Source: an uncultured Holophagaceae bacterium (lineage in GTDB: Bacteria; Acidobacteriota; Holophagae; Holophagales; Holophagaceae). Taken from it: a stretch of 43,567 nucleotides of DNA. The notes beneath the pieces were generated by a model, which had not been told where the DNA came from, searched no databases, and saw only the letters and a program-made list of their open reading frames with translations. This document shows positions 1 through 22,182 of the stretch, piece after piece. The DNA is taken from NCBI GenBank assembly GCA_903890595.1, contig CAITBU010000053.1, forward strand, positions 1 through 43,567. The letters are read 5' to 3'. Each line of letters begins with the position of its first letter. The first letter of the stretch is position 1. The position numbers and the translations under genes are program-made.

Positions 1-2
1 AG

Positions 3-1334
3 GCTGCCGCGATAGTTCACCTGGGAGAGATCCCGGGTGGCGGGCTGATCTCCGGAGATCGTGGGATCCACGCCGGGATTGGACGTGGAGGTGGCGTTGT
101 CGTAGCGCTGCTGGATATAGGTGTTGCGGGAGTAGCCAAATTCCAACTGCTGGGTGGGGCCAATCTGCCAGAAGAGCTTGTACTGGTTGAAGTCGTCGGT
201 CGCAGGCCCATCAATCTGGGTTGAGATGGTGGGGGTCGCCGAGTTCACCCCCCAGCTATAGGCGGCCAGAGGGTTTCCGGTGAGGGCCGTGGTGCCAACC
301 GTCGCGGGGATGTAGGTCCGATAGTTCGTCGGATTGCTGCCCAACAAGTTGGTGGGCGGTCCGTAGTTGTTGATGAGGGTTCGGCTGGGCGTGATCCGCT
401 TGCCATAGCTGAAGGTCAGGCGGTCCTTGATGATGGGCCCCAGGATGGAGATCTCCCAGGTTTTGCTCATGTCGTCCGAGTTGACCGTCGACGGGGTCAG
501 GGCGTAGGGACTGCCATTGGTCGAACCACTCATCGGGGAGTTGAAGCGGTTGCCCGCCGTATTGGGATAGGCGCTCCAGTCGGCACGCGATAACCGGGCC
601 CGAATCGAACCAGAGAAGTTGTTGCTGCCCGTCTTGGTCACCACATTGACGATACCGGCGGAGGTATGGCCGTACTTGGCGTTCACGGGACTCTGGATGA
701 TTGCGATGTCCTCGATGAGATCGTCCAGGATCCAGGCGCTGCTGCTGCCCTGACCCGTGGCGGGATCTCGGACCACGATGCCATTGACGGTGTACTGGGC
801 CGAGCCCGCGATGCCCCCGCGGATAACGGCGTAGTCGGTGGTACCGGTAACGCCCGGCGCGATGGTCAGGGCGCCCAGTGCATTGATGCTGCCCCCCATG
901 GGGAGGGTCTGCAGCTCGTCAAACGTCAGGGTGGTAGCTGTCTTTGTGTCGGTCTTATCCAGCGCCGCAGACGTGCTGGTCACTTCTACCACTGCCCCCG
1001 TGGTTTCCACAGGGCGAAGCCGAAGGTCCTGACGAAGGGTCTGGCCTGCGGCCAGGCTGAACAGGGCCTTGGAGCCAATGAAATTAGCCTTGGTGACATT
1101 CAGCTGATAGCTGCCGGGTAGTAGCAGCGGCAACCGGTATTCCCCCTTGTCGTCGGTCGTGACGATACGGCCGCCCAGAAGGGCCTCCCCGGCGAGCGAG
1201 ACGAGGGCCCCCGTTATGGGTTTACCACTGGGATCGGTCACCGATCCACGGACTGTGCCCACGCTCTCCTGGCCGGAGAGCACGGTTCCCACGATCATCG
1301 CGCCCAGTAGTGTGAGTCGATTCAAGTGCTTCAT
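3..1334 (-). CDS. TonB-dependent receptor, Oar-like, with N-terminal carboxypeptidase-regulatory-like domain (runs off left edge; C-terminus missing)
   Basis: Hand translation of an open minus frame absent from the ORF track: ATG at 1334 with AGGAG upstream; MKHLNRLTLLGAMIVGTVLSGQESVGTVRGSVTDPSG...GEYRLPLLLPGSYQL; plug motif AKYGHTSAGIVNVVTKTGSNNFSGS; WEISILGPIIKDRL. Confidence 0.9.
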   Translation of the reverse strand, partial: MKHLNRLTLLGAMIVGTVLSGQESVGTVRGSVTDPSGKPITGALVSLAGEALLGGRIVTTDDKGEYRLPLLLPGSYQLNVTKANFIGSKALFSLAAGQTLRQDLRLRPVETTGAVVEVTSTSAALDKTDTKTATTLTFDELQTLPMGGSINALGALTIAPGVTGTTDYAVIRGGIAGSAQYTVNGIVVRDPATGQGSSSAWILDDLIEDIAIIQSPVNAKYGHTSAGIVNVVTKTGSNNFSGSIRARLSRADWSAYPNTAGNRFNSPMSGSTNGSPYALTPSTVNSDDMSKTWEISILGPIIKDRLTFSYGKRITPSRTLINNYGPPTNLLGSNPTNYRTYIPATVGTTALTGNPLAAYSWGVNSATPTISTQIDGPATDDFNQYKLFWQIGPTQQLEFGYSRNTYIQQRYDNATSTSNPGVDPTISGDQPATRDLSQVNYRGS

Positions 1335-1374
1335 CTGAAAATCTCCTCGTGCATTCCTGCTGTCATCAAGAGGG

Positions 1375-2145
1375 CTAGAAGTTGAAGCCGGCGCTGAATT
1401 CGAGAACCACCTTGGTGCGGTTTCTCAGCTCAGTGGTTGCCGCCTGCCCGGTGTAGCTGAAGGGCAGGTAGTTGACCTCCTTGAACCCAAGGAGGCTGAG
1501 GTTGGCTTCGAGGAAGAAGACCCTCGTGGCGTCGTAGCGAAGCCCAGCGAAGGCACCAGGAGTGATGCTGTTCTTAACGGGCTGGATGAAGAAATTCTCG
1601 GAGCCCAAAACCGTTGGCGTGGTGACATTCCGGTTGACCACGACATTGATGCCCCCCGACACATCCTGTTGGGAGCGCAACAGGCTCAGGTGGATGCCGG
1701 CGTGAGCAGAGAGGCCTTCCTGCCAGAAGGGAGCACGGTAGCCCAGGTTGAGCGTGAGGCTCTCGAGGTTGTTCCGCCGGATGTCCACCGAATCGTACCT
1801 GCCATCGGCCTTGGGGAGCCCATCGGGGCCGAGTACGTAGCGTGTTATCTGGCCCGTGACCACTTGCCCCAGGCTATCCAAGGCATAGCCTTGCCCAAAC
1901 CGGGTGCCGTCATAACTCGTGTTGCGGAACACGCGATAGTCGGCGCCCAGGAAGACCTTGCCCCGACGGAAGGGCATGGCCAGCTCGGCGCCCATGAGAA
2001 GGTCGTAGCGGGAGCGGCTCTCCCCGGGATCCCCAATGAATCGCCCTGGTCCAAGTTTAAAGCTCAAATCCAGGTCTTGCGCCGTGCTTGGGACGGCCAA
2101 TGCGAGCAGGAATAACGCAGAAACAAGTCTGTTCCGGGTGTGCAT
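1375..2145 (-). CDS. Outer-membrane beta-barrel protein
   Basis: Signal peptide (LFLLALAVPSTA|Q), alternating amphipathic strands, C-terminal ...SAGFNF typical BAM signal; GGAGG RBS; 40 bp upstream of the TBDR on the same strand. Confidence 0.75.
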   Translation of the reverse strand: MHTRNRLVSALFLLALAVPSTAQDLDLSFKLGPGRFIGDPGESRSRYDLLMGAELAMPFRRGKVFLGADYRVFRNTSYDGTRFGQGYALDSLGQVVTGQITRYVLGPDGLPKADGRYDSVDIRRNNLESLTLNLGYRAPFWQEGLSAHAGIHLSLLRSQQDVSGGINVVVNRNVTTPTVLGSENFFIQPVKNSITPGAFAGLRYDATRVFFLEANLSLLGFKEVNYLPFSYTGQAATTELRNRTKVVLEFSAGFNF

Positions 2146-2204
2146 TGTGTCCCTCCGAAATGTGGATGTAAGTGGTTACTCGGCCGTGCATTCGTAGGTA
2201 TCAG

Positions 2205-2243
2205 AGTGTGTGTCTGGGTTCGGTTAAAGCCTGTTAAATTTTC
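2205..2243 (-). promoter_or_regulatory. Tandem direct-repeat box plus -10-like hexamer, copy 1 (upstream of beta-barrel/TBDR genes)
   Basis: Minus strand GAAAATTTAACAGGCTTTAACCG-N10-CACACT; TTAAC repeats 10 bp apart; same architecture at 9296-9334 and 11123-11160. Confidence 0.75.
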
Positions 2244-2289
2244 CTGAGCCCACACTTTCGTGGGCCGGCAGAGCAGAGGAGCGCCCACC

Positions 2290-2979
2290 ATGTACCGGAT
2301 CCTGATCGTGGATGACGATCAGAACCTGCGAGCCGTCCTGGAAAAGGCCCTTAAGAAGGCGGGCCTGATACCGGTCGTCGCGGAAAACGGTGCCATCGCC
2401 CTGGAACTGCACCGAGCCGAGCCTGCCGATCTTCTGCTCCTGGACCTCATGATGCCCACCATGGACGGGTTCCAGGTGCTGAAGGCCCTGCGTCCCCGGG
2501 ACGAAGTCCCCGTGCTCATGCTCACCGCCGAGGGACAAGAACAGAAGCGCGTGGAAGGCTTCCGACTGGGCGCCGACGACTACCTGGTGAAACCCTTCAG
2601 CATTGAGGAACTGCTGGGGAGGATCCGAGCCATCCTGAAGCGCTCTGCCCGCTACAAGGAGGTCAAGTCACTCTGCTCCGGCCCCTTCGAGTTGGATCGC
2701 ATGCACAAGTGCCTCCTGAGGGAGGGGGAGTCGGTGGGGCTGTCTCCGGTGGAATACCACATCCTAGAAGCACTTATGGCGCATGCCGGGCAGTCCCTCA
2801 CCCGCCTGGATGTGCTCAGGCTCGCCTGGACAACTGATTCCCGGCCGTCCCCGCGCACCGTGGATGTGCACATGGTCAGCCTGCGTCGCAAGCTCATCCT
2901 GGAAGGCGATCCCAGATGGATCCTGACCTCCGGAATCCACGGCTACTGCTGGACCAGCCCCATCCAGGAGAAGGCCTGA
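2290..2979 (+). CDS. OmpR/PhoB-family response regulator
   Basis: Receiver motifs ILIVDDD, LLLLDLMMP, LMLTA, YLVKPF; winged-helix RTVDVHMVSLRRKL; ATG 2290 preceded by GAGGAG. Confidence 0.93.
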   Translation: MYRILIVDDDQNLRAVLEKALKKAGLIPVVAENGAIALELHRAEPADLLLLDLMMPTMDGFQVLKALRPRDEVPVLMLTAEGQEQKRVEGFRLGADDYLVKPFSIEELLGRIRAILKRSARYKEVKSLCSGPFELDRMHKCLLREGESVGLSPVEYHILEALMAHAGQSLTRLDVLRLAWTTDSRPSPRTVDVHMVSLRRKLILEGDPRWILTSGIHGYCWTSPIQEKA

Positions 2980-2984: not shown

Positions 2985-5900
2985 TCAGGGGGCCTCGCGG
3001 AAGTGAATGCGGAAAGTGGACCCTTCTCCCACGGTGCTCTCCAGTTCGAGCCGGGCACCCATGGCATCGAGTATGGTCTTCACGATGCTCAGGCCCAGCC
3101 CTGTGCTGCTCTCGCCCGCAGTCGGCTGTGCCGATAACCGGTTGAAGCGGCCGAAGACCTGAGCCTGGTCGTGGGCGGTGAAACCAGGCCCCTGGTCGCT
3201 CACCTCGATGATCCCTGGCTTGAGGACCACGCGGATGACCCGGGTGGGCGGCCCCGGCGCGGTGAACTTCACGGCGTTGGAGATGAGGTTATCCAGCACC
3301 TCCCTGAGGAAGAAGGGATCCACCCAGAGTGGCGGCAGGGTCTCTTCAGCAAGCACTTCCAGCAGGATGTCCTTGGTTGCGGCCCGGTGGAAGTAGGGCT
3401 CCACCAGCGAAGCCACCAGGGCTCGAGGGTCTACGGAGCCCATTTGAAGATCGAGCTCACCGGCCTCGACATGAGAGCTGTCCAGCAGGCGCCGGATCAT
3501 CTCCTCCATCTCGCGCGAGATCCGGAGGATTTCCCGGGAACCTTCGTCCAGCTCTCGAAGGTCGACCTCGCCCCCGAGGAGTTCCGCATGGAGCTGAATG
3601 GTGTGCAGCGGATTCCGGAGATCGTGGGCGACGATGCCCAGCAAGTGGCTCTTATCTTCGTTCATCTGCGTCAAGCGCAGGTTCACCCGCTCGAGGATCT
3701 CGGCCTTTCTGCGGATTTCCCCGGTGGCTTCATCCACCTTGATCTGCAGCTCGGCGTTCCGACGTTTAAGCCCCTGGAAGCGCAACCGCATCGCCCCCGC
3801 CAACAACCCCAGGGGCAGCATCCAGGCCAGGGCCCGCACCCAGAGACGCTCCCACCAGGCCGGCAGGACCTGAAGGGGCAGGACCGACTCAGGACCCCAG
3901 GGTCCACCCTTCCTGCGGCTTCGCACCTGGAACGTGTAGAACCCCGGAGCCAAGGCCGGATAGCGCGCACTGCGCCCCTGGGCGGTCTGCCAGTCCTGCT
4001 CGAGCCCGAGGAGTCGCACCTGATGCTCGACCTGGCTCTCGTTCAGGAAGGTCAGCGCAGAGATCTGAAACTCGAGCGTGTTCTGGTCCCTCGGAATATC
4101 CAGGCAAACAGTCAGATCGACAGGCCGAGGGTTTCCCGAGGCAAACAGTTCGCGGACAGTGCTCCTGAGGGGGGGGAGCCGGAGGGATCCTGTCTGGGGA
4201 TGAAAATGACTCAGACCCATGTTGCTGCCGATCCAGATGCCCCCATCGGCGTCGGCCAGAAAGGAACTGGCATCGCAGTCATCGCCCGCCAATCCGTCCT
4301 CAGTCGTGAGTGATTCCAGGCGACCCCCGTCCAACACCGAGACCCCCGTCCCGGTACCCAGCCAGAGTCGACCCGCAACATCCACACCCAGCATGTAGAC
4401 GTGATTTCCCACCAGCCCAGCGCTCTTGTCGAGGTGCTTGGTGATCTCGAAGCGTCCGTCTTTGATGTGGAGAATGGAAACGCCCAGTCCCTCGCGGTAG
4501 GCCACCACGATGCGATCATCCGGGAGCACGACGAGCTGGTAAAGGGCGTCATCCAAGAGCCCATCCTGGCGTGTGTAGCGGTGCCACTTCCCATGGTCCA
4601 GTACCGTCAGCCCATGCGTTCCCGCAACCAGGATCCGCCCTTGAGAGTCCTGGGCGATGCTGAACATGTCCTCGTCAGGAAGGCCCACAGGCAGCGCCAC
4701 GGACTCGAATCGCCACTTGGAGCCCGTCTTCCGCCCCCGGGAAAGACCACCGCCCTGCTGAGCGAGCCAGAGGTCCCCCTGTCTATCCAGGACCATTCCG
4801 AAGACCCCTTTGGCGTGGAAACCCGAGGCTGGTCCATGCGCTTCCAAGCGTCCGGTCCGTGGGGTGTAGCGAAGGGGATAGCCATTCCTCTGGCCGATCC
4901 AAACATCTCCATCAGGGGTGGAGGCGATGCACCGCGTGCTCCTCCCTTCCGTTCCGGGAAGCACTTCCCATCCCTGTGGCGTGGCCCGGCAGGCCCCACT
5001 CTGGGTGCCCACCCAAAGTGTCCCCTCTGGCGTGCGGTGGATGCCCAACATGAGGTTGCTGGGAAAGCCGTCTGCGGTGGAATAGATCTGGAACGCGCCG
5101 CCACCCAGCACCCGGGAGAGAGGTCGCGTCCCAATCCAAAGCGAACCCTCCTGGTCCACAAAGGCGCAGTAGGGTGAGTCAGCCTTGATGAACCTGGTGA
5201 TCCTGGGTGTCCCGTCTCCTCGCAACACGTGGAGGCCTTGGTTGGAATTCACGATCAGGGCGCCAGAAGGGTCCCGACAGAAGGCCGGTGTGCGCGCCGG
5301 AGGCAGGAGTCCAGCGTGGTCGGTAAAGCGGGAGGCACCGGCCACCAGGGAAAAGAGGGTCTGAGGCGTTCGCACCCAGAGCGCGGCCGTGCTATCCACC
5401 TCCATGACGGTGGTCTCGGAGAGCGTGAGGCCCTGCTCCTTCCCGAAGGATTGGTGGAGGCCTTCGGTGGACATGGCGTGGATGGCTTTTTGCCCGGTGA
5501 CCCAAATCCGCTGCCCGCCTTTGGCCGCCGCCAGGCCGGTCGCGGGCCCGCCGGGCCAACCGGGTGCAGGCAAAAAGTGGTGCCCATCAGTGCTCAGGAA
5601 AAGACCTTCCAGGGTGGCTACCCAGATGTGGCCACCCGCGCCTTGCGCGATGCCCCGGAAACCCGACTGTGGGAGGCCCTGGCCGGGACCGTAGGGCTCA
5701 AAGCGCCCCTGGCGGTAGCGCACCAGGCCCCGCAGGGTCGTTCCCACCCACAGACTGCCGTCTGCAGTCACCAGCAGTGCGGAGATGTTCGTGGCGGGCA
5801 GACCTTCCTCGAGTCCGAACTTGCGGAAGCGCACGCCATCGTAGCGGTAGAGGCCGCTCTGGGTACCCACCCAAAGGTAGCCGTCCCTGTCCTGGGCAAG

Positions 5901-6047
5901 GGCGCCGGTATTCAGGCTGGTTAGCCCATCCTTGGTCCCATAGACCCGGAGGGGAACCCGGCCTGAAGGAGCTGCGGGAACGCTGGGCTCTGCCTGGGCT
6001 GGGCCAAGCGCCAAGGCCACCGCCAGAAGCATTGTCCGTAGGTTCAT
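2985..6047 (-). CDS. Sensor histidine kinase with periplasmic beta-propeller (Reg_prop) repeats and Y_Y_Y domain
   Basis: Signal peptide, repeated DxxGxLWVGT and DGL motifs, Y_Y_Y-like RYPALAPGFYTFQVR, PAWWER-TM, H-box AHDLRNPL, N-box NLISNAVKF, DQGPG, STGLGL, GEGSTF. Confidence 0.92.
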   Translation of the reverse strand: MNLRTMLLAVALALGPAQAEPSVPAAPSGRVPLRVYGTKDGLTSLNTGALAQDRDGYLWVGTQSGLYRYDGVRFRKFGLEEGLPATNISALLVTADGSLWVGTTLRGLVRYRQGRFEPYGPGQGLPQSGFRGIAQGAGGHIWVATLEGLFLSTDGHHFLPAPGWPGGPATGLAAAKGGQRIWVTGQKAIHAMSTEGLHQSFGKEQGLTLSETTVMEVDSTAALWVRTPQTLFSLVAGASRFTDHAGLLPPARTPAFCRDPSGALIVNSNQGLHVLRGDGTPRITRFIKADSPYCAFVDQEGSLWIGTRPLSRVLGGGAFQIYSTADGFPSNLMLGIHRTPEGTLWVGTQSGACRATPQGWEVLPGTEGRSTRCIASTPDGDVWIGQRNGYPLRYTPRTGRLEAHGPASGFHAKGVFGMVLDRQGDLWLAQQGGGLSRGRKTGSKWRFESVALPVGLPDEDMFSIAQDSQGRILVAGTHGLTVLDHGKWHRYTRQDGLLDDALYQLVVLPDDRIVVAYREGLGVSILHIKDGRFEITKHLDKSAGLVGNHVYMLGVDVAGRLWLGTGTGVSVLDGGRLESLTTEDGLAGDDCDASSFLADADGGIWIGSNMGLSHFHPQTGSLRLPPLRSTVRELFASGNPRPVDLTVCLDIPRDQNTLEFQISALTFLNESQVEHQVRLLGLEQDWQTAQGRSARYPALAPGFYTFQVRSRRKGGPWGPESVLPLQVLPAWWERLWVRALAWMLPLGLLAGAMRLRFQGLKRRNAELQIKVDEATGEIRRKAEILERVNLRLTQMNEDKSHLLGIVAHDLRNPLHTIQLHAELLGGEVDLRELDEGSREILRISREMEEMIRRLLDSSHVEAGELDLQMGSVDPRALVASLVEPYFHRAATKDILLEVLAEETLPPLWVDPFFLREVLDNLISNAVKFTAPGPPTRVIRVVLKPGIIEVSDQGPGFTAHDQAQVFGRFNRLSAQPTAGESSTGLGLSIVKTILDAMGARLELESTVGEGSTFRIHFREAP

Positions 6048-6091
6048 ATACCGCTAGTTTGCACGCAATTGGCCGAAGAAGTTGCGTGCTA

Positions 6092-7402
6092 TTACAGGGC
6101 GGGCTCTTCCGAAGGCAAGGCTTCGGTTTCGGTGCCGAAGACACCCTCCCACTTGGCGATCACCACCGAGGCCAACCCATTGCCAATAACGTTGATCGTG
6201 GTCCGGGCCATGTCCATGATTTCGTCCACCGCGAGCAGCATGGCGATGCCAGCCTCGCCGGGCAGACCAAAGGATCCGCAGGTGCCTGCGATGATCACCA
6301 AGGTGGCCCGAGGCACGCCCGCCACACCCTTGGATGTGAGCATGAAGGTGAAGACCATGAGGAGCTGACTCCCCAGGCTCATGTGGATGCCCGCCGCCTG
6401 GGCGATGGTGAGGCTGGCGAGCACCAGATACAGGGTGCTGCCATCCAAGTTGAAGCTGTAGCCGGTGGGAATCACAAAGCTAGCTACGCGCCTGGGCACG
6501 CCAAAGCGCACGGTCTCCTCCAGGAGCTTGGGGAGGGCCGCCTCGCTGGAGGCTGTAGAGAAGGCCGTGATCGCCGGCTCCTTGATGGCCTTCAGGAAGG
6601 CGAAGACCTTCACGCGGCAGATCAGCATCACCGGCACAAAGACCAGGACGAAGAGACAGATCAGGGCGAAGTAGAGGCTGCCCACCAGCAGGGAGTACTG
6701 CTTGAGCAACTGGAACACCGCCGGCCAGCCTGCCATCGTCTGGCCGTTGACGGTGTGACCAGCGGCCATGGAGCTCACGTTGTAGGCCATGGCGCCAAAC
6801 ACGCCGAGAGGCGTAAGGGTCATCACCATGTCCGTGTACTTGAACATGGTCTGGGCCACGCCATCGAAGAAGGCAAGCACGGGCTTCCCGCGTTCGCCCA
6901 CATGGGTGAGGGCGATGCCGAAGAGGCTGGCGAAGATCACCACGGGCAGGATGTCGCCTTCCGCCGCGTGCTGGACCAGGTTCGAAGGAAAGAGATGCAG
7001 GGCGATCTCCCAGCCCGTCTTCGCCTTGACGGCCGCCACGGCGGTGTGGGCCGAGAGATCCAGCGGGAGGTGGGCGCCGGGCTTCAGCCAGTTCGCGATG
7101 GCGAGCCCAAGGAAAAGGGCAAAGGTTGTGACGACCTCGAAATAGAGCAGCGCCTTGCCGCCCATCCGTCCTACGGCCTTGATATCCCCCGTCTGGGCAA
7201 TGCCCACAACGATCGTGCTGAAGAGCAGGGGTACGATGAGGCCCTTGATGAGGGAGATGAAGGCCTTGGAGAGGAAGCGAAAGAGGTTGTAGGCCTGCGG
7301 GAACTCGTTTCGGGGCAGAGAGCCGCCGAGGACCACCCCCATGGCGAGACCAAAAAAAATCCAGAAGGTGCTCGAGCGATAGAAGGGTCTCTTGGGGGCC
7401 AT
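6092..7402 (-). CDS. Dicarboxylate/amino acid:cation symporter (GltP/DctA family)
   Basis: FSTASSEAALP and GYSFNLDGS motifs, SKGVAGVPRA, DMARTTINVIGN; start placed at ATG 7402 after GGAG. Confidence 0.93.
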   Translation of the reverse strand: MAPKRPFYRSSTFWIFFGLAMGVVLGGSLPRNEFPQAYNLFRFLSKAFISLIKGLIVPLLFSTIVVGIAQTGDIKAVGRMGGKALLYFEVVTTFALFLGLAIANWLKPGAHLPLDLSAHTAVAAVKAKTGWEIALHLFPSNLVQHAAEGDILPVVIFASLFGIALTHVGERGKPVLAFFDGVAQTMFKYTDMVMTLTPLGVFGAMAYNVSSMAAGHTVNGQTMAGWPAVFQLLKQYSLLVGSLYFALICLFVLVFVPVMLICRVKVFAFLKAIKEPAITAFSTASSEAALPKLLEETVRFGVPRRVASFVIPTGYSFNLDGSTLYLVLASLTIAQAAGIHMSLGSQLLMVFTFMLTSKGVAGVPRATLVIIAGTCGSFGLPGEAGIAMLLAVDEIMDMARTTINVIGNGLASVVIAKWEGVFGTETEALPSEEPAL

Positions 7403-9105: not shown

Positions 9106-9295
9106 GGGGTGACCTCCAGGAATGATCGGCTGCGGGTGATCTCGCATTCAAGGCGCACCCTAACCAGATCGCGGGACAGTGCATGAAAGGAGCGAAGAGC
9201 ATCAGCCTGCAAAGTTCTCTGGCTGCCAGCAACCCTCTGCCTCGCAACAAGCAGGCTTCGGGATGGAATTGATTCAAAGAGACTTTCAAGGCCTG

Positions 9296-9334: not shown

Positions 9335-9374
9335 AGCTCACTCGTATTCCATGGGAGCCGCCTTGAGCGTCTGC

Positions 9375-11122: not shown

Positions 11123-11160
11123 GGAAATTAACAGGGATTAACCGGCCTGTGGCACACACT
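11123..11160 (+). promoter_or_regulatory. Tandem direct-repeat box plus -10-like hexamer, copy 3 (upstream of racemase/amidohydrolase genes)
   Basis: Plus strand GGAAATTAACAGGGATTAACCG-N10-CACACT. Confidence 0.75.
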
Positions 11161-13241: not shown

Positions 13242-15233
13242 CTACCTGAGGGTCAAGCGCACGTAGCGGCCCTCGGGTGTGTTCTCGAACTGGACCTTGT
13301 TGCCCCAGGTCGCGGGCTCCGGGCTGTGCTTCAGCAGGGCAGCCTTGGCCTGATCAAACTCATCGGCAGACACGGGGCGCGGCTGGTACTTGGTCAGAAT
13401 GTTGTCCGAGACGATGGGGTACAGCTCCAGACTCAGGGCGCCAGAAGGTGTCGCCACCAGCACTGCGGGCAGACCGAATGGGTCCACGCCACTCTTGACA
13501 AAGCGGCCAGCCGAGTTGAAGGCAAAGTTGCCAATGGAATAGGCAATCCAGCGGTTCTTGTACTGCTCAATCTCACCCATCATGTGCGCGCCGTGGCCAA
13601 GCACAAGATCCACCCCCGCATCGATGGCGCCATGGGCTGTGGTCGTCTGCTCCGCATTGCGCCATTTGTAGTTCTGTCCCCAGTGGGGAAAGTAGACGAC
13701 GAAGGCATTCGTGTCTGCCTTGCGGATGGTTTCCACCTGACGCTTCAGGATGCCCAGGTCGATGGCCGCCACGCCTGGACGACTGGGCTTGGCATAGAAC
13801 TGGTACTTCGTGTCGTACTCGGCTTCGCGGTACTCGAAGGCGGTGATGACATAGAGGCTAAAGCTCCGACTCCCAACCTGGAAGCTGCGGTGCCAAGGCG
13901 CCCTAGCACCTTCCTCGTTCAGGCCGGCACCGAAGGTCGTAATGCCCTTGGCGGAGAGCGTGGACAAGGTCTGGAGGAGACCTTCCTGGCCGAGGTCAGC
14001 CGTGTGGTTATTCGCCAGTCCGACGACCGTGATGTTGTGGCGCAGCAGGGCGGCGGGAGTCTGGATTGGATCAGCGTAGTGAACATAGTCCTTCTGGCCC
14101 GCGAAGGGTGAAGTCCGGGTCTGGGCCACGGGCGTCTCGAGGTTCGCCACCACGACCTGGGCGGATTTCAGCAGGGGAGCCAGCTTCTCCAGGGAATAAT
14201 CGTAGCCCTTAGCCTTCAGGATGTGTCCCTTGCCGGCCTTTTCGTATTCATCCTGGTAGCTCTCGCCCCAACCAAGATCACCTGCGAACAGCACCCGCAG
14301 GGGGGTGGTGGCCGCCTGGAGACTCGAGGTCGGATTCCCCGCGCCGGCGAAGAGCACCCTTTCGGCATGCACCGACATCTTCTTGTCGTTATGGGGGACA
14401 CCAGGGGCCGTGACCAGCTGCCAGCGAAACGGAACCTTGAGGCGCTCTGCCTGCGTCCGCGCCGCTTCGAAGTAGGCCTTGCCACGGGCGAGGCGGAAGG
14501 CCCCCTGGGCCATGGCGCCGGGGGTTCGCCGGAGCTGCTTGTGGTTGGGATCAATGTCCTGATCGCCCAATAGGATGGTTATGGGTAGGCCAAGGACCTG
14601 TTTGAGGCGGGCATCGTCGCAGACGGTGCCACCCGTGCCATAGGGGAAGGCGATCGCTGGATCAGGGAACATGTACCAGCCCGCATTGGCGCTTACGATA
14701 CGCAGGGCCTTGGCGGTTGGCTTGAAGAAGGCCAGGCGATGTACGAACTGACTTCCAGCGGAGTGGCCGTAGAGGAGATAGCCAGGTGTCGTCAGGTTCA
14801 ACTGCGCGGCGGCTGCATCGAAGATCGGATCGAGATAGGAAAAGGTCCACTGGGCCTCTGGTATTGGCACAGGGAGCTTGTCCTCCTCATTGAAATTTCC
14901 GAAGACATTGCCGAAGTTGTACTGAGAGTCCGAGGGGAAATCGGTCTTTGAGAACTCCGGGCAAAGCAGCACAGCCCCTCGGCGTTCAGCAATCTCGCTC
15001 CAGTCGTCGCGGTAGCGGTCGGCGTCTCGGGTTACACCGTGCATGACCATGAGCACCGGCGCATCCGGTTTGCAGTTGGCGGGCACGCTGTAGAACACCC
15101 GGAGGGGACGCCCCTGGTTGATGGCAGCAGCTCTGAATGTGATGCTGCCTTTCCCAGGCTGAAGGGAAGTGGACGGGCTCTGGGCCCATACAGGCAGGAC
15201 GAGAAGGAGAGCGGTGAGACAGGCCAGCTTCAT
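13242..15233 (-). CDS. Secreted fusion: alpha/beta hydrolase plus CapA (PGA_cap, metallophosphoesterase-like) domain
   Basis: Signal peptide VLPVWA|Q; hydrolase MHG, GHSAG, GDQD, GVPH; CapA motifs FAGD, NLETPV, LANNHTAD, PHWG, VLGHGAH, YSIGNF; ATGA overlap with upstream peptidase. Confidence 0.87.
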   Translation of the reverse strand: MKLACLTALLLVLPVWAQSPSTSLQPGKGSITFRAAAINQGRPLRVFYSVPANCKPDAPVLMVMHGVTRDADRYRDDWSEIAERRGAVLLCPEFSKTDFPSDSQYNFGNVFGNFNEEDKLPVPIPEAQWTFSYLDPIFDAAAAQLNLTTPGYLLYGHSAGSQFVHRLAFFKPTAKALRIVSANAGWYMFPDPAIAFPYGTGGTVCDDARLKQVLGLPITILLGDQDIDPNHKQLRRTPGAMAQGAFRLARGKAYFEAARTQAERLKVPFRWQLVTAPGVPHNDKKMSVHAERVLFAGAGNPTSSLQAATTPLRVLFAGDLGWGESYQDEYEKAGKGHILKAKGYDYSLEKLAPLLKSAQVVVANLETPVAQTRTSPFAGQKDYVHYADPIQTPAALLRHNITVVGLANNHTADLGQEGLLQTLSTLSAKGITTFGAGLNEEGARAPWHRSFQVGSRSFSLYVITAFEYREAEYDTKYQFYAKPSRPGVAAIDLGILKRQVETIRKADTNAFVVYFPHWGQNYKWRNAEQTTTAHGAIDAGVDLVLGHGAHMMGEIEQYKNRWIAYSIGNFAFNSAGRFVKSGVDPFGLPAVLVATPSGALSLELYPIVSDNILTKYQPRPVSADEFDQAKAALLKHSPEPATWGNKVQFENTPEGRYVRLTLR

Positions 15234-16378
15234 ACTTCACCTCCTGGAACGGGGAGAGCTTTCGCTGCGAGACTTTGGATGATGGACAGGCCGATGCTCA
15301 CGGAATCCACCAGGCACTGGACGGGCATGGCTTCCTGGTGGGAGTGCACGTTGCGGTAGCCGAGGCCGAGGTTCACACAGGCGATGCCGCGGCCATTGAG
15401 GACATTGGCGTCACTGCCGCCTGGGTAACGCAGTGATTTGGGTTCAAAGCCTGCTGCGGCGATGCCTTGGGTCACGGCACAGACAATGGGTTCTTCAGGG
15501 TCCAGGGAAAACCCATCGTATTTCGGGGTCCAGGTCAGATCCACAGAACCCCCAGCCGCAGCCGCCGACTCTTCAAAGGCCTCCCGGACATGAGCCTTCT
15601 GAGTCTGCAGTTCCTCCGGGTGAGGGCTCCGGAACTCTCCAAGGATCTCCACACGGTCAGGGATCACATTGATGGCGGTCCCGCCCCGGATGGTCCCGAT
15701 GTTAAGCATTCCGGTGGTACCCCAGCGGCCCTGCTTCAGGCGAGAGATGGCCTGGGCGGCGATCTGGATGGCGTGGACGCCCTTCTCGGGCCAAACCGCG
15801 GCGTGGGCGGCCCGCCCATGCACCACGGCCTCGAAGACGACGGCGGCCGGAGCCTCGACCACGAAGCTTCCGCAGGGTGCCGAACTATCGAAGATGAGTC
15901 CCACGGTCGCTTTTAGGTTGGAGACATCCAGGGCCTTGGCGCCATGCATGCCAGCTTCTTCGCACACCGTGAAGACCAGGTCCAGTGGACCATGGGGAAT
16001 GTTGCGCTCAGAGAGCTGCTGCAAGATCTCAATGATGATGGCGATCCCGGCCCGATCGTCCGCTCCCAGGATGGTGGAACCGTCCGAGGTGATGAGGTCC
16101 TCCGCAGGGAACTGCGGTTTCAACCCCAGGGTGGGAGCTACCGTATCCAGGTGCGCACAGAGCAGGAGAGCGGGTACCGGGAGGGTCCCCGGCACGTGGC
16201 CGATGAGGTTCCCGGACTGACCTCCAAACGTAGATCCCGCCCCATCCATGGTTGTGACGATCGACAGTTCCGAAAGGCGCTGTCTCACGACCTCCGCCAC
16301 GCCACCTTCATTCCCGGAGGTACCGTCCACTTTGGCCAGCTGAAGAAACAGCTCGATGACCCGAACCTGATCTGCCAT
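15230..16378 (-). CDS. M20-family metallopeptidase, peptidase T-like (cytoplasmic)
   Basis: AHLDTV, LGADDRAG, TVCEEAG, GGSDAN, VHSHQE; no signal peptide. Confidence 0.9.
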   Translation of the reverse strand: MADQVRVIELFLQLAKVDGTSGNEGGVAEVVRQRLSELSIVTTMDGAGSTFGGQSGNLIGHVPGTLPVPALLLCAHLDTVAPTLGLKPQFPAEDLITSDGSTILGADDRAGIAIIIEILQQLSERNIPHGPLDLVFTVCEEAGMHGAKALDVSNLKATVGLIFDSSAPCGSFVVEAPAAVVFEAVVHGRAAHAAVWPEKGVHAIQIAAQAISRLKQGRWGTTGMLNIGTIRGGTAINVIPDRVEILGEFRSPHPEELQTQKAHVREAFEESAAAAGGSVDLTWTPKYDGFSLDPEEPIVCAVTQGIAAAGFEPKSLRYPGGSDANVLNGRGIACVNLGLGYRNVHSHQEAMPVQCLVDSVSIGLSIIQSLAAKALPVPGGEV

Positions 16379-16406: not shown

Positions 16407-16424
16407 TTGGAACAAAGGTTCCAA
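16407..16424. promoter_or_regulatory. Perfect palindrome, candidate RpiR/MurR operator
   Basis: TTGGAAC-AAAG-GTTCCAA between the divergent peptidase and regulator genes; related TGGAA-N3-TTCCA at 16378-16390. Confidence 0.65.
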
Positions 16425-16504: not shown

Positions 16505-17365
16505 ATGAAGAATGAGCCCTCGTTCAAACGCCTGCAGGGCGCGATTCTGGCGATCCAGGATGCCCTGACTCCCACCGAGCGCCTCATTGCCAGCTATCTG
16601 CTGGAGCATCCCCGCAGTGTGGCTCTGATGCCGATTCAGGAGTTGGCTTCCAGACTTGAGGCCGGTCCCGCCTCCATCATCCGGGTCATGCAGAAGCTTG
16701 GCTACAAGGGGTATTCCGAGCTGAAGCGAGACTTGCAGCAGGAGCTGCGAGGGAACGACTCCCCGTTGGAGCGCTTCAAGCTCGCCCTGGACCGCCGCAC
16801 CGACCTGGACTTCTCGGACATCCACGCCATCGCCAGTCAAGAGATGGATAACCTGCGGACGACGCTGGAGCGGGTGGATAGCGCCAGCCTGGCCCAGTCC
16901 GTGAAGCTTGTGAGCCGAGCGAGCCTCGTCTACACCGCAGGGGTCGGCATCTCCTCTCACCTTGCCAGCCTGGCGACCTTCGTGTTCCAGCACATCGGCC
17001 TGCGCGCCTTCCTGGTCCAGCACACCGGGCTGAACCTGGCTGAGCAGCTGGTTTCCATCAGAAAGCAGGATGTGCTCCTCGCCTTCGCCTTCCCCCCGTA
17101 TTCCAGCCAGACCATCGAAGGCGCCGCCCTGGCCAAAGCGCAAGGGGCGAGTGTTATCGGCATCACCAACCAGATCCTCAGCCCCTTGGCAGAGCATTGC
17201 GATGTTGTGCTCGTAGCCAAGACGGATAGCAGCGCGCCGTCCAACTCCCTATCCGCCCCCCTGCTGCTCATCCACGCGATCGCCTCGGCAGTGGCCTCCG
17301 CCAAGCGTCGCCAGTCCTCGAAGGCCATCGAGACGACCATCTCACTCCGCAACCGAAAGCCCTAG
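16505..17365 (+). CDS. MurR/RpiR-family transcriptional regulator (HTH + SIS)
   Basis: LTPTERLIASYLL, ASIIRVMQKLGYKGYSELK HTH; SIS domain GVGISSHLA, FPPYS, IGITN, SPLA. Confidence 0.92.
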   Translation: MKNEPSFKRLQGAILAIQDALTPTERLIASYLLEHPRSVALMPIQELASRLEAGPASIIRVMQKLGYKGYSELKRDLQQELRGNDSPLERFKLALDRRTDLDFSDIHAIASQEMDNLRTTLERVDSASLAQSVKLVSRASLVYTAGVGISSHLASLATFVFQHIGLRAFLVQHTGLNLAEQLVSIRKQDVLLAFAFPPYSSQTIEGAALAKAQGASVIGITNQILSPLAEHCDVVLVAKTDSSAPSNSLSAPLLLIHAIASAVASAKRRQSSKAIETTISLRNRKP

Positions 17366-17386: not shown

Positions 17387-18730
17387 ATGCCCAACCAGTC
17401 GAACCAGGGTCCGAACGCCAGCGCCACCTTTCCTGCCGTCTTCTGGGTGGCCAATGTTCTGGAGATGCTGGAGCGGGCTGCATTCTATGGCTTCTATATC
17501 GCCATCACGCTCTATCTCACCGACCTGGTGGGGTTCAGTGACCGGGAGACGGGCGTCGTGGCAGGCCTGTTCGTGGGCCTGCTCTACTTTTTGACCCCCT
17601 TCGTCGGCGCCCTGTCGGACCGGTTGGGGTTTCGCAAGGCGCTGATCATGGCCTTCGCCCTGCTGACCGTGGGCTACACGCTGCTCGGCTTGTTTACCGC
17701 CAAGCTTCCAGCCGTCCTCTCGCTCATCGTCATCGCCGTTGGCAGCTCGTTCATCAAGCCGGTGGTGACGGGAATGATCGCGAAGACGGTTTCCGAGGCG
17801 AATCGCGCCCGAGGTTACGCCCTCTTCTACTGGGTGGTGAACATCGGCTCCTTCGGCGGTAAGACCTTCGTCCCGTTTATCCGCCTCGGGGCCGGGCTGC
17901 AGTATGTCAATTTTTTCGCCGCGGCCATGTGTCTGGTCGCGCTCCTGGGGGCCGTGATTTGGTTCCGCCCCGAGGCTGAAGTGACGCGCGGGAAGACCCT
18001 TGGAGAGGTGGCCCGTTCCCTCCAGAAGGTGGTCCGGACCCCCCGGCTCATCCTCTTCATTCTCATTATCTCGGGGTTCTGGACCACCCAATATCAGCTC
18101 TACGCAACCATGCCGAAATACGTCATCCGGTTGCTGGGAGCCTCCTCTCGGCCGGAATGGATCGCCAATATCAACCCACTGATTGTCGTGATGTTCGTGG
18201 TCCTGATCACCCGCCTGATGCAGCGGAGAAAAGCCGTTACGTCCATCTTTGTTGGCATGCTGCTGGTGCCTGCGGCGGCCCTGTTGATCGCACTGGGGCC
18301 CGCCCTCCAGTCTGTGGTCGGACCGAAGATCCTGATCCCTGGGGTGGGCTCTGTGCACCCCATGGTGCTCATGCTGGTGCTGGGGATCATGCTCCAGGGG
18401 TTCGCAGAGAGCTTTATCTCACCGCGCTACCTGGAATATTTTTCCCTTCAATCACCCAAGGGGGAGGAGGGCGCTTATCTCGGCTTCGCCTATCTCTACT
18501 CCTTCTTTGCGGCCGTGATCGGCTTTGCGCTTTCCGGGTTTTTATTAGACAAGTACTGTCCTGATCCAAAGATCCTTCCAGCGGGTCTCAGCAGCGTAGA
18601 GCGCGCAGCCTACTACCAGAATGCGCATCACATCTGGTACTACTTCATCGCCATCGGCATCCTGACAGCCTTGGCCCTCCTGGTGTTTGCGCGGGTCACG
18701 GCACGTCGCGAAAGCTCTACCTCAGCCTGA
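17387..18730 (+). CDS. MFS transporter, POT/PTR peptide-transporter-like
   Basis: EMLERAAFYG (ExxER motif), GALSDRLGFRK, FIKP, FYWVVNIGS; multiple hydrophobic helices; AAGGAG RBS. Confidence 0.88.
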   Translation: MPNQSNQGPNASATFPAVFWVANVLEMLERAAFYGFYIAITLYLTDLVGFSDRETGVVAGLFVGLLYFLTPFVGALSDRLGFRKALIMAFALLTVGYTLLGLFTAKLPAVLSLIVIAVGSSFIKPVVTGMIAKTVSEANRARGYALFYWVVNIGSFGGKTFVPFIRLGAGLQYVNFFAAAMCLVALLGAVIWFRPEAEVTRGKTLGEVARSLQKVVRTPRLILFILIISGFWTTQYQLYATMPKYVIRLLGASSRPEWIANINPLIVVMFVVLITRLMQRRKAVTSIFVGMLLVPAAALLIALGPALQSVVGPKILIPGVGSVHPMVLMLVLGIMLQGFAESFISPRYLEYFSLQSPKGEEGAYLGFAYLYSFFAAVIGFALSGFLLDKYCPDPKILPAGLSSVERAAYYQNAHHIWYYFIAIGILTALALLVFARVTARRESSTSA

Positions 18731-18771: not shown

Positions 18772-21700
18772 ATGCGCTACGCCCGCATCCTGCCATTCCT
18801 CTTCATGCCCTTGGTGGTTGCCGCCCTCGAGCGGCCCATGCGCCTGCCCCAGGACCCCAGCCTTAGCCCCGATGGCCGGTCGGCGGTCTTCGCCTGGCAG
18901 GGCGACATCTGGTCGGTTCCCAGCACTGGGGGGAGTGCCACGCGCATCACGTCCCACCTGGCAGACGATTCCCAGCCCAAGGTGAGTCCTGACGGCAAAT
19001 TAGTGGTTTTCGTGTCCAGGCGCACGGGTACGGACCAAGTCTTTCTGGCCCCCATCCAGGGCGGAACGCCCCGCCAGGTGACCTTCGATGGGAACGACAA
19101 GACCCTGGTGGGTTTTACCTCCGACGGTGCCGCTGTGCTGGTGATCGAGGAGCAGGATCTCTCCCCCCACCAGGTCGAGAACCGCCGCCTCTTCAAGGTC
19201 TCCCTCACGGAGCGGAAGGCGCCGGAGCGTCTCTTCGACGCCTCTCTGGATGGCGCGGCCCTGTCTCCTGATGGCACCAAGGTCCTGTTCACGCGGGGGC
19301 GCGCCCCGTGGTGGCGAAAGGGCTACGAGAGCTCCGCCGCCTCTCAGCTCTGGGTGGCGGACGTTGCGGCTCAGCCCGTTACCTACCAGCGCTTGAGTGC
19401 CGACCACCCGCACTTCCAGAACGTCTCGGAGCGCTGGCCCATGTGGTCACCCAACGGGAAGGGCTACTACTTCGTGAGCGAGATCGACGGCATCAATGAG
19501 GTGTACTACCGCAACCTGGATGGCTCGGACCAGCGACGCGTGACCCAGGTGAGCCTGGAAAAGGGTGACGATGGCGTCGTGTTCCCCTCGCTCTCGGGCG
19601 ATGGCAAGACGCTGCTCTTCCGGCGACGCTTCGATCTGATGACAGCCGACACCGCGAACGGCAAGGTTCGTCCGCTCGCCCTGAGCGCCACGGGCGACGA
19701 GGTGGCCGCGCCCCTGGAGCCCCGGACGGACAAGGCCGCCTCGGCCGTGGCTTTCACCAAGGATGGCAAGCAGATGGCCTTTGTGGCCGGAGACGACCTG
19801 TGGGTGATGGACACCATCCTGAAGGAACCCGTTCGCGTCACCCACAATGCCGCCCGGGAAGACAGCCTCGCCTTCAGCCCTGATGGCAAGCGGCTCTACT
19901 TCGTGAGCGAGGCCGGCGGCGAGTCCGATCTCTACGTTGTCGACTGTCCCAGGGAGGACCGAGCCTGGTTCCTGGCCTCCGGCTTCACCCCCAGACCCCT
20001 CACCCGGGACAAGGCTGTGGAGGGTAGCGTCAAGCCCGACCCCACCGGCAGGACCGTCGCCTTCCTCAAGGATCACGATCTCTGGCTGATGAAAGCCGAC
20101 GGCACCGGCGCCCACAAGCTCCTCGACAGCTGGAGCAACATGGACTTCGACTGGAGCCCCGACGGCAAGTGGCTGGTCGTCGCCAAGCAGGACACGCTGT
20201 TCAACAGCGACATCTGGGTGCTGCCGGTGGACGGCAGTCGCCCGCCCTATAACCTCTCCCGACACCCCGACAACGACACCACTCCCCGCTGGAGCCCCGA
20301 CGGCACCCGCATCGCCTTCGTGGGGCACCGGGATGGGGACGAGGCCGACATCTATGTGGTGACGCTCTCCAGGGCCGTGAAGGAAGAAACAGCCAGGGAT
20401 CGGTCCCTTAAGCGAGCCACCGAAGCGCTTCAAAGCCGCCCCGCCCGCCGCGAGGCGACTCCCGCCTCGGCCGACGAGGCCTCGGCTGAGCCCGCAGTCC
20501 GTTCCGCTCGGCCGGTGGGTAAGGATGTGGTGATCGACTTCGAGGGCATTCACGACCGCATCCACCGCCTCCGTTTCTCGGGCAACGAGCGCGACCTGGT
20601 GTGGTCCCCGGACGGCACCCAGCTTGGCTTCACCCACGCGGCCTCGGGCGCTGCCGGGGAAGGCGAGGAAGACCAGCGGGTCAAGCGCCCCGCCGCAACG
20701 CCTGCCCCAGCCAAACCCCAGGCGGCACCCACCGCCCCGCACACGGCACCCGCCGCGCCCGCGGCTTCATCTGCGCCAGCCACCACCACGGGACCAGCCT
20801 TCTTCACCGTCACCTTCCCCGACAAGCTGACCCCGGTCCAGGTGTTCAGCCCGGCCCTCGCCCATCCCAAGTGGGTGGAGGCGAACACCCTGGTGGGAAC
20901 GGCTGTCGGCCTCCCCGCCACACTCGCCATCTCCTCCGCCAAGCGGACCACCTACCCCTTCACGGTCCACTTCACCCGTGACTGGCGGGACTACCGGACG
21001 GCGGTCTTTGATCAGGCCTGGCGCCACATGCGGGACAGCTTCTACGATGGGCACCACAACAACCGCAACTGGGACACGGTGCGCGCCAAGTACCGAGACC
21101 TGGCGGGAGAGTGCCTGGGGAAGAAGGAATTCGAGACCCTGGTTCAGCTGATGCTCGGCGAACTGAATGCCTCCCACCTCGGCTTCTCCAATGCTCCGGA
21201 ATTCCTCCCGGTACCGCCTGCCACGACCGTGCCCGTCCCCACCCCCTTCCAGCTGGGCTTGCGCTTCGATCGCACTGCGAACGGGAGCGGGCTGAAGGTG
21301 GCCAGCGTCATTCCGAACAGTCCCTGCAGCCTACAGCGAAGTCTGGTTCGTCCCGGAGAGACGCTGCTGGCCATCGATGGGGTGAAGGTTGCCCGGGATA
21401 CAGATCTGGCGGGCCTTCTGGCCATGCCGGAGAGCCGGGACCTGCAGCTCACCATCGCCGATGGTGCGGGTCTGGCCCGCCTGGTCACCGTGCGGCCCGT
21501 GGCTTCCGTGAAAGAGCTTCTCTACCCGGAATGGGTCGAAGCGAACCGGGCGGAAGTCGAGCGCCAGAGCGGCGGCAAGCTCGGCTATCTCCACATCAAG
21601 GGCATGAACATGCCGAGCTTCCGCCAGTTCGAGGAGGACCTCTACCACGCTGGCGTCGGCAAGGACGGCCTGGTTATCGATGTGCGCTACAACGGCGGTG

Positions 21701-22182
21701 GGAGTACAGCCGATCATGTGCTCACGGCGCTCACCCAGCCCGTGCATGCGGTGGCCGTGCCGAGGGATGGTCAGGCCGGCTACCCCCAGGACCGCATGGT
21801 CTATGCCACCTGGACCAAACCCATCGTGCTGATGTGCAACGAATACAGCTTCTCCAATGCGGAGATCGTCAGCCACGCCATCAAGACCATCGGCCGGGGT
21901 CGACTGGTGGGCATGCGCACCGCCGGAGGCGTCATCAGCACGGGTGCGTCCACCCTCCAGGACGGCAGCACCCTCCGCATGCCCTACCGGGGCTGGTACC
22001 TTCGCGACACGGGCGCTGATATGGAGCTGAATGGCGCCGAGCCGCACATCGCCCTCTGGAACCGGCTCGGTGGCCCCGATGACCAGCTGACCGCCGCGGT
22101 GAAGGCGCTGGCCGAAGATGTGGCCACGGACAAGGCCAAGCCCCGCCCCCAGCTTGTGAGTGCTGCCGAACTGCGCAAGTAG
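18772..22182 (+). CDS. Tricorn-like S41 peptidase (secreted; PD40/beta-propeller repeats, PDZ, S41 domain)
   Basis: Signal peptide, many (W/F/L)SPDG repeats, GELNASH, GYLHI, IDVRYNGGG, SFSNAE, LVGMRTAGGVI. Confidence 0.92.
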   Translation: MRYARILPFLFMPLVVAALERPMRLPQDPSLSPDGRSAVFAWQGDIWSVPSTGGSATRITSHLADDSQPKVSPDGKLVVFVSRRTGTDQVFLAPIQGGTPRQVTFDGNDKTLVGFTSDGAAVLVIEEQDLSPHQVENRRLFKVSLTERKAPERLFDASLDGAALSPDGTKVLFTRGRAPWWRKGYESSAASQLWVADVAAQPVTYQRLSADHPHFQNVSERWPMWSPNGKGYYFVSEIDGINEVYYRNLDGSDQRRVTQVSLEKGDDGVVFPSLSGDGKTLLFRRRFDLMTADTANGKVRPLALSATGDEVAAPLEPRTDKAASAVAFTKDGKQMAFVAGDDLWVMDTILKEPVRVTHNAAREDSLAFSPDGKRLYFVSEAGGESDLYVVDCPREDRAWFLASGFTPRPLTRDKAVEGSVKPDPTGRTVAFLKDHDLWLMKADGTGAHKLLDSWSNMDFDWSPDGKWLVVAKQDTLFNSDIWVLPVDGSRPPYNLSRHPDNDTTPRWSPDGTRIAFVGHRDGDEADIYVVTLSRAVKEETARDRSLKRATEALQSRPARREATPASADEASAEPAVRSARPVGKDVVIDFEGIHDRIHRLRFSGNERDLVWSPDGTQLGFTHAASGAAGEGEEDQRVKRPAATPAPAKPQAAPTAPHTAPAAPAASSAPATTTGPAFFTVTFPDKLTPVQVFSPALAHPKWVEANTLVGTAVGLPATLAISSAKRTTYPFTVHFTRDWRDYRTAVFDQAWRHMRDSFYDGHHNNRNWDTVRAKYRDLAGECLGKKEFETLVQLMLGELNASHLGFSNAPEFLPVPPATTVPVPTPFQLGLRFDRTANGSGLKVASVIPNSPCSLQRSLVRPGETLLAIDGVKVARDTDLAGLLAMPESRDLQLTIADGAGLARLVTVRPVASVKELLYPEWVEANRAEVERQSGGKLGYLHIKGMNMPSFRQFEEDLYHAGVGKDGLVIDVRYNGGGSTADHVLTALTQPVHAVAVPRDGQAGYPQDRMVYATWTKPIVLMCNEYSFSNAEIVSHAIKTIGRGRLVGMRTAGGVISTGASTLQDGSTLRMPYRGWYLRDTGADMELNGAEPHIALWNRLGGPDDQLTAAVKALAEDVATDKAKPRPQLVSAAELRK

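Follow-up and report, generated by a model that had tools for sequence, protein, structure and literature searches.

A lower-GC island with candidate genes for the synthesis and salvage of poly-gamma-glutamate in an uncultured Holophagaceae bacterium

The DNA considered here is contig CAITBU010000053.1 (43,567 nt, hereafter the window) of GCA_903890595.1, the genome of an uncultured Holophagaceae bacterium (G000; 3.19 Mb in 526 contigs, the window being C53), and our subject is an island of putative poly-gamma-glutamate (PGA) genes of about 33 kb, of which the window carries the right-hand part. Open reading frame (ORF) and domain scans bear out all 15 genes that a first-pass annotation had listed in positions 1-22182, with the domains assigned to them. 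The GC content of this region is 62.8%, that of the rest of the window 67.6% and that of the genome 67.1%. The closest match to the window is another genome labelled Holophagaceae (G033, locus L027), with 90.7% identity across 13.9 kb; its contigs C19 and C21 share a 1099-nt overlap that is only 94% identical and so is not counted as a clean join. Wherever we speak of export, it is a prediction by a hydropathy heuristic that looks for hydrophobic N-terminal segments and lipoboxes.

The window opens within a TonB-dependent receptor (1..1334, minus strand; Pfam CarboxypepD_reg and Plug), whose N-terminal 444 of 1048 residues are present before the gene runs off base 1; it is full length in G033 and in the metagenome contig L115. 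The latter (8911 nt) matches window positions 1-2666 at 99.1% identity and positions 4605-8871 of another G000 contig, C483, at 99.7%, the 1978 nt between the two matches being the remainder of the receptor. Comparison of contig ends gave no join between C53 and C483, and the join rests on L115; contigs from a sequencing run of a separate study (X5) cover 30 of the 30 bins of the bridged stretch, with pieces over both joins and none running end-to-end. The leftward run begins with an exported protein (1375..2145, minus strand; signal-like N-terminus) whose last residue is Phe and which is likely to be a beta-barrel of the outer membrane; it has no Pfam match and has a 25% identical homologue at the same position in G429. 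After the receptor come, on C483, a barrel gene, BPL_N, ggt, DUF6305, dctM, a small membrane ORF, an astE-like gene, pgsB, pgsC and pgsW; every gene from 2145 leftward through pgsW lies on one strand, with short gaps. Between dctM and the astE-like gene, at about 3680-3830 of C483 (minus strand), the small hydrophobic ORF of some 45-50 codons is possibly a small permease subunit.

The synthase genes pgsB, pgsC and pgsW lie about 8-11 kb past the left window edge and adjoin one another both on C483 and on contig C19 of G033. PgsW scores 266.8 bits, above its cut-off, PgsC 92.3 bits against a cut-off of 96.45, and PgsB 218.4 bits against 222.7, the PgsB proteins of G033 and G444 being above it (222.9 and 233.8). 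The Mur-ligase motifs of PgsB are intact (GTRGKT, VECM and NARPDH). A structural model of PgsW (C483 1-906; locus L109 1325-2316), built from only 9 sequences, has a confident alpha/beta fold (pLDDT 84.7); among solved structures its best Z-score is 8.5, with no clear relative, and Foldseek gave 0 hits at E 0.001. The first-pass annotation had remarked that capB, capC and hut genes were missing from the window and had seen in this an argument for pure catabolism. The observation is true of the window, but the argument fails because pgsB, pgsC and pgsW lie in the same strand run just beyond its edge, while HutG and urocanase are encoded elsewhere in the genome. Just beyond pgsW in G033 (C19; L109 781-1000), and at position 1716 of contig C461 in G000, are remnants that resemble a tRNA-Ser 3' end, a possible integration site of the island.

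On the right-hand side of the island is an exported glutamate-racemase-like enzyme (11221..12258, plus strand), identified by its match to the Asp/Glu racemase family. The ORF had earlier been listed with 388 aa, but its homologues begin at the ATG at 11221, giving 345 aa. Its Asp52, Ser53, Cys124 and Cys244 are invariant across 54 sequences; like MurI (PF01177, TIGR00067), it thus has the Asp-Ser-Gly motif and both cysteines, and the nearest solved structures are glutamate racemases. There the likeness ends, as these proteins form a separate clade: in a tree of 51 rows (the window, 39 of 78 locus ORFs and 11 others) they separate from 9 MurI rows with support of 100/100, and the window protein scores 56.8 bits against TIGR00067, below the cut-off of 146.65. 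Where MurI has a P-Y-G loop, which binds the gamma-carboxylate, the clade reads G-Y-N, with Tyr92 and Asn93 invariant. A signal-like N-terminus is found in 75 of the 78 racemase ORFs recovered from 80 loci, and in 95 of the 120 listed among 1199 homologues at E 1e-10. The genome's normal, cytoplasmic MurI sits on contig C137, so that the window gene was rejected as the housekeeping MurI; the reading of the window gene as a second racemase, predicted to be exported, is supported. Known periplasmic racemases such as BsrV are pyridoxal-phosphate enzymes. We found no description of the exported clade, or of this gene module, in a literature search with incomplete coverage of subscription journals.

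The racemase genes also tell us what company this enzyme keeps. We examined 80 loci, the best 80 of at least 578 by closeness to the window racemase. A ggt, astE-like, DUF6305 or dctM neighbour occurs in 32 of them, across phyla; within 10 kb there are GGT (27 loci), AstE-like (18), DUF6305 (17), DctM (15), PgsB (13), PgsC (11), PgsW (11) and receptor (9) genes. When such neighbour genes were searched for in G000, those found (ggt, DUF6305, dctM, astE-like, pgsB, pgsC and pgsW) all fell on the single contig C483. In G072 a single run reads DUF6305-ggt-dctM-astE-pgsB-pgsC-pgsW-racemase; in both G072 and L033 the racemase directly follows pgsW, and in L106 it stands ahead of pgsB. The PGA link that had been proposed from the window alone is thereby upheld, by pgsBCW in the same run and by PGA genes among the racemase neighbours. 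Of the gene set then suggested for a co-occurrence check, the racemase, FGase-like genes (see below) and TonB receptors do come together in other phyla; CapA is beside the racemase in 1 of the 80 loci.

Presence of pgsB was scored in 50 of the 80 source genomes (loci L027, L029, L058, L070 and L081-L106 being left out), and 32 have it. The salvage genes ggt, astE, DUF6305 and dctM flank the racemase in 18 of these 32 and in 0 of the 18 pgsB-negative genomes; for FGase-like genes the figures are 10/32 and 0/18. An independent sample of 250 genomes drawn from the class gave pgsB in 3 of 17 racemase-positive and 5 of 233 racemase-negative genomes (Fisher p 0.012, a value overstated by the kinship of the genomes). 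With pgsB enriched, yet not found in many genomes that have the racemase, the link between the two is real but not obligate. Signal-less members of the clade occur in other contexts, and a role of the clade in salvage more generally would agree with this. One such member, on contig C31 of G072 (L024 13452-19045), lies amid an M14 peptidase, a GH3/beta-lactamase fusion and an alanine racemase, a setting that resembles peptidoglycan recycling. Others, in L149 (G467:C1:4082163-4086050) and L151 (G402:C63:10466-14377), stand in a run of capA, the signal-less racemase-clade gene and a D-Ala-D-Ala-ligase-like gene, by its gene content a possible cassette for D-amino-acid peptide synthesis. In a second recurrent context, met in 9-14 of the 80 loci (L042, L045, L046, L055, L067, L080, L088, L090 and L102), the racemase has as neighbours a histidine kinase with a regulator and two exported proteins without a Pfam match (clusters 9 and 15). 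Within the racemase/pgs locus L079, positions 13920-15026 hold a DUF1611 gene, a family known as the D-glutamate acetyltransferase DgcN.

Flanking the window racemase are two metallohydrolases resembling N-formylglutamate amidohydrolase (FGase): FG1 (10235..11086, minus strand) and FG2 (12309..13172, plus strand). Both are lipoproteins by their lipobox and keep the invariant His, Asp, His and Glu. They score 28-52 bits against the FGase family PF05013, for which the true HutG of the genome scores 184, and 42.9 and 26.3 bits against the HutG model TIGR02017, whose cut-off is 278.75. With such scores, and with HutG and urocanase encoded elsewhere, we rejected a role as a step of histidine utilisation. 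The FG2 model (pLDDT 94.6) is nearest to FGase entries, with Z-scores of 19.5 (root-mean-square deviation 4.2, 213 residues aligned) and 18.4, then to PghL (13.9; 3.5, 167) and PghP (12.8; 3.6, 172), amidases following at 11.5 or less. The pair thus resembles HutG (PF05013) and PghP/PghL (PF05908, M86) in its zinc-hydrolase fold and His/Asp/His/Glu residues; it differs from PghL, whose metal motif is His/Glu/His, in having His/Asp/His and in being lipoproteins. Passages of PMC6506827 give the same FGase entries as the nearest structures to PghL outside PghP. FGase-like genes lie beside the racemase in 17 of the 80 loci, or 14 of 77 once three near-copies are dropped, and one homologue (P0236) is fused to BPL_N, a domain encoded beside ggt in the island. 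In a gamma-Glu-Glu bond an acyl group is attached to the nitrogen of glutamate, just as in N-formyl- and N-succinyl-glutamate, so it is plausible that the FGase-like and AstE-like enzymes are gamma-glutamyl hydrolases. In L156 (G417:C84) and L158 (G427:C187), FG1 orthologues of 47-49% identity adjoin a family-5 peptide-binding ABC protein gene, in L156 together with an RpiR gene. Next to FG1 in the window is an exported C45-family Ntn-hydrolase (9351..10238, plus strand; domain match), with Cys36 directly after the signal peptide.

Beside the leftward run are an OmpR/PhoB-family response regulator (2290..2979, plus strand; Pfam Response_reg and Trans_reg_C) and a sensor histidine kinase (2985..6047, minus strand; Pfam) with periplasmic beta-propeller (Reg_prop) and Y_Y_Y domains, a 62% identical homologue of which belongs to a receptor-barrel-regulator-kinase cassette in G429. 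A direct-repeat box, GGTTAA-N4-TGTTAA, occurs between the barrel gene and the regulator (2222..2237, plus strand), between the Ig-repeat lipoprotein described below and the C45 gene (9313..9328, plus strand), and between FG1 and the racemase (11128..11143, minus strand). The pattern GGTTAA-N2-CCTGTTAA is found at 2222, 9313 and 11143(-), where shuffles lead one to expect 0.04, and its core GTTAA-N5-GTTAA has 3 copies in the 3.19-Mb genome, all at this locus, where 0.03 are expected. Since we first noticed the pattern by eye in the window itself, its conservation is the more telling test: G033 retains all three boxes and L028 one of them, copy 3 being present in G033, L028 and L029, and variant repeats lie upstream of the homologous regulators of G429 and G049. 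Repeats with a 10-bp period are typical of OmpR-family sites (CpxR, PhoP, PmrA), and a direct repeat of that period upstream of the regulator and of other genes of the locus fits the layout of an OmpR regulon. The boxes are likely to be the site of the locus's own OmpR-type regulator; each sits between divergent genes, either of which could be the controlled one. Shared regulation of the left two-thirds of the region is supported by these three copies.

Of 62 genomes of the genus, two yielded pgsB, namely G000 and G033, the only ones among those searched to have the exported racemase. Among the 133 genomes of the family, pgsW occurs in 4 (G000, G033, G444 and G417), the racemase clade in 9, FGase-like genes in 8 and the alpha/beta-hydrolase domain of the CapA fusion (below) in 4. 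All four come together in G000, G033 and G444, which makes only two independent cases, since G000 and G033 are one lineage. In G444 and G102 the order from barrel to pgsC is unchanged and follows a receptor end. The G444 genes are spread over separate contigs: barrel to pgsC, kinase-C45-FG1-racemase-FG2, M20-capA, and RpiR-POT-S41.

Several genes that the first-pass annotation had included in its pathway are not supported as conserved parts of it: GltP, the Ig lipoprotein, CapA, M20, POT and S41 are each beside the racemase in at most 1 of the 80 loci. The GltP/DctA-family (SDF) symporter (6092..7402, minus strand; domain match) is family-wide, its orthologues being about 85% identical and having other neighbours; as it is also missing between kinase and C45 in G444 and G102, we rejected it as a conserved component. 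The Ig-repeat lipoprotein (7555..9147, minus strand), which G444 likewise lacks at that place, has several paralogues in the genome, and the last two thirds of its C-terminal region are without a Pfam match. To the right of FG2 is an exported fusion of an alpha/beta-hydrolase (GHSAG) with a CapA/PgsA/MslH-type domain (13242..15233, minus strand; PGA_cap, 193.5 bits). This domain matches MslH structures and keeps the motifs for Asp11, Glu44, Asn87, His88, Asp91, His259 and His295, the equivalents of Asp11 and His259 being assigned by motif position only; the His261 position appears to be Gly. The catalytic His/Asp motifs of MslH used for this comparison are those given in passages of PMC10406935. 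Compared with the MslH/CapA/PgsA epimerase family (PF09587), with which it shares the PGA_cap domain and catalytic His/Asp motifs, the fusion thus stands apart in its hydrolase partner, in that apparent Gly and in its place outside the pgs operon. That partner domain, in 90 hits elsewhere, is fused to CapA in 40, to M14/AstE in 22 and to M20 in 7. The CapA fusion is not part of the pgs operon, since some 20 kb separate it from pgsB and it has a promoter and an operator of its own. Outside the island, at G000:C383 160-1536, there is a further gene for an exported protein with a CapA domain, here standing alone.

The fusion gene is followed by a PepT-like M20 peptidase without signal peptide (15230..16378, minus strand; above the TIGR01883 cut-off), an RpiR/MurR-family regulator (16505..17365, plus strand; domain match), a POT/PTR-type MFS transporter (17387..18730, plus strand) with three paralogues in the genome, and an exported tricorn-type S41 peptidase (18772..22182, plus strand; domain match). 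A predicted sigma-70 promoter with an 11/12 match (16460-16432, minus strand) would serve M20-capA; taken as a whole, the scans for promoters and terminators did no better than chance, and this is the only site that we use. Directly downstream of it, at 16407..16424, is the palindrome TTGGAAC-N4-GTTCCAA, unique in the genome, which is likely to be the RpiR operator; its arms are kept in G033 and a variant occurs in G444. This right arm, from the capA fusion to the tricorn-type peptidase, has its own operator and a weaker link to the island. We read it as a module for peptide uptake under separate control, which accompanies the island in Holophagaceae and probably handles short (D-containing) peptides. 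The remainder of the window (22261-43567) contains ordinary higher-GC genes, among them a hexapeptide acetyltransferase gene and rseP and, recognised by eye, dxr, cdsA, uppS, an iron-type ABC transporter, dnaK, dnaJ and a sigma factor.

Taken together, the gene content points, with fair though far from complete assurance, to a diderm PGA synthesis-and-salvage island that would make PGA and reclaim its glutamate outside the cytoplasm. PgsB, PgsC and PgsW would polymerise and export the chain, and the TonB receptor and the barrels would carry gamma-glutamyl oligomers across the outer membrane. GGT may then strip N-terminal Glu, while the AstE-like and the two FGase-like zinc enzymes would cleave the N-acyl-glutamate (gamma-Glu-Glu) bond. 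The periplasmic racemase would convert released D-Glu to L-Glu, to be taken up by the DctM-type permease or perhaps by GltP, and the propeller kinase with its OmpR-type regulator would activate the system by way of the three boxes. Since the island also holds the synthase genes, the exported racemase and hydrolases likely trim and reclaim the cell's own polymer, and not only foreign material.

Quite a number of observations weigh against such an island. The racemase clade also occurs in genomes that yielded no pgsB, namely 18 of the 50 tested and 14 of the 17 racemase-positive ones of the class sample; the Fisher value overstates the association, related genomes not being independent, and the 80 loci were chosen by closeness to the window racemase rather than being all 578. 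For the FGase-like family, pgsB was not found in 8 of the 10 class-sample genomes that carry it, and 4 of its 8 carriers in the family are without pgsW. The FG2 model is nearer to FGase than to PghP or PghL, and PF05908 has no match in the genome at E 0.1, nor in the scan of the window proteins. G417 carries pgsW together with an FGase-like gene, but no racemase was found there; the receptor-barrel-regulator-kinase cassette of G429 occurs where neither pgsB nor the racemase was found; and in G444 capA does not adjoin FG2, other genes following each of them. Finally, CapA, GltP, RpiR and S41 are each beside the racemase in 1 of the 80 loci, and M20 and POT in none.

Could the racemase, or the CapA fusion, serve synthesis instead? 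Either might epimerise chain-end glutamyl residues in the periplasm, setting the D/L ratio of the polymer and replacing PgsA in pgsBCW. The racemase genes adjoining pgsW in G072 and L033 and pgsB in L106, the invariant Tyr92 and Asn93 of the G-Y-N loop and the MslH-type motifs of the CapA domain are all consistent with this, and CapA is proposed as a PGA epimerase in passages of PMC8179263. Yet the racemase is frequent in genomes that yielded no pgsB and has signal-less relatives in other contexts, and CapA lies beside it in that single locus of 80 and has a different operator in the window; we consider this alternative unlikely. A locus devoted mainly to scavenging foreign gamma-glutamyl polymer or peptides, in the manner of a polysaccharide-utilisation locus and with an incidental or minor synthase, is in our opinion distinctly unlikely: the receptor, surface lipoprotein, propeller kinase and many exported hydrolases would suit it, as would FGase-like genes in genomes without pgsB and the scores of this lineage's pgsB and pgsC, at or slightly under the cut-offs, but pgsBCW lies on the receptor's own strand run with its Mur-ligase motifs intact, and the ggt/astE/DUF6305/dctM genes are beside the racemase in none of the 18 pgsB-negative genomes.

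It is very unlikely that the region is a chance assemblage of lower-GC DNA, in which a pgs operon, a generic receptor/two-component cassette and a generic peptide-uptake arm share no common pathway. The modules do occur apart, as witness the G429 cassette, the family-wide GltP and the rearrangement in G444, and there are two different operators; against this, one box recurs at the promoters of the leftward run, the regulator, the Ig lipoprotein/C45 pair and FG1/racemase, and in several phyla racemase and FGase-like genes show independent linkage to pgs genes. Chance may still explain the right arm taken by itself. Most improbable of all is recycling of peptidoglycan stem peptides (gamma-D-Glu-mDAP), with the racemase salvaging their D-Glu, although the signal-less clade member of G072 in its peptidoglycan-like surroundings and the RpiR/MurR-family regulator and POT of the right arm are in keeping with it: neither the 15 window genes nor the 9 on C483 include an amidase, a lytic transglycosylase or a gene of the NagZ or Mpl type, the conserved neighbours are PGA genes, and the regulator scores 52.6 bits against a MurR cut-off of 408. 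Peptidoglycan fragments, which the first-pass annotation had offered as an alternative to PGA, are disfavoured as the main substrate of this locus.

How does the proposed synthesis-and-salvage island compare with known systems? The synthase cassette itself, known from curated NCBIfam models (TIGR04012, TIGR04011 and TIGR04332), has the same three genes in the same order, here at the end of the leftward run; what differs is that it is joined to ggt, astE-like, DUF6305 and dctM genes, a TonB receptor, the two-component box, the exported racemase and the FGase-like enzymes. PGA production in Fusobacterium nucleatum was reportedly described by Candela in 2009, and a search with incomplete coverage of the literature on pgsW, DUF6305 and TIGR04332 found no relevant description. 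The other known element, PGA turnover by Bacillus (pgsBCAE/capBCADE with GGT and PgdS), shares the PgsB/PgsC synthase, GGT and a CapA-type domain nearby. According to passages of PMC4928254, the Bacillus GGT is an exo-hydrolase whose release of Glu from PGA supplies carbon and nitrogen, and the racemases RacE and YrpC are cytosolic; PMC7490850 assigns PgsA to the periplasm and PgsB to the cytoplasm. Here, in contrast, PgsW replaces an operonic PgsA, the racemase is predicted to be exported and outer-membrane components are present, while no gene of the PgdS or PghP family was found. With polysaccharide-utilisation loci (SusC/SusD, hybrid two-component sensor) the island has in common a TonB receptor, a propeller sensor, a surface lipoprotein, exported hydrolases and inner-membrane carriers, but it carries a polymer synthase and its receptor is not of the SusC type; the window and C483 genes scanned gave no SusC/SusD model match and no glycoside hydrolase. 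This locus adds three features, namely the receptor/two-component box, a pair of FGase-like enzymes and the fusion of a hydrolase with CapA.

The making, export and recycling of PGA by Gram-negative bacteria is little described. Most non-Bacillales genomes with pgsB are without PghP, PMC4497714 counting 19 species with both against 226 putative producers. Our locus offers candidates for the missing steps: the exported racemase clade, the FGase-like and AstE-like hydrolases, the receptor, and a regulator with a defined box. More speculatively, and with rather less confidence than for the island itself, one may picture a PGA cycle across the outer membrane in diderms of many poorly cultured phyla, with secretion, sensing, TonB re-import and periplasmic dismantling, two unrecognised gamma-glutamyl hydrolase families (FGase-like and AstE-like) and the first exported cysteine-type glutamate racemase, perhaps acting on chain ends rather than on free Glu. 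As proteins of the exported clade and of the FGase-like family are often annotated plainly as 'glutamate racemase' or 'N-formylglutamate amidohydrolase', confirmation would correct many annotations and, if the reading is true, would add a further route of D-glutamate turnover in freshwater and sediment microbes.

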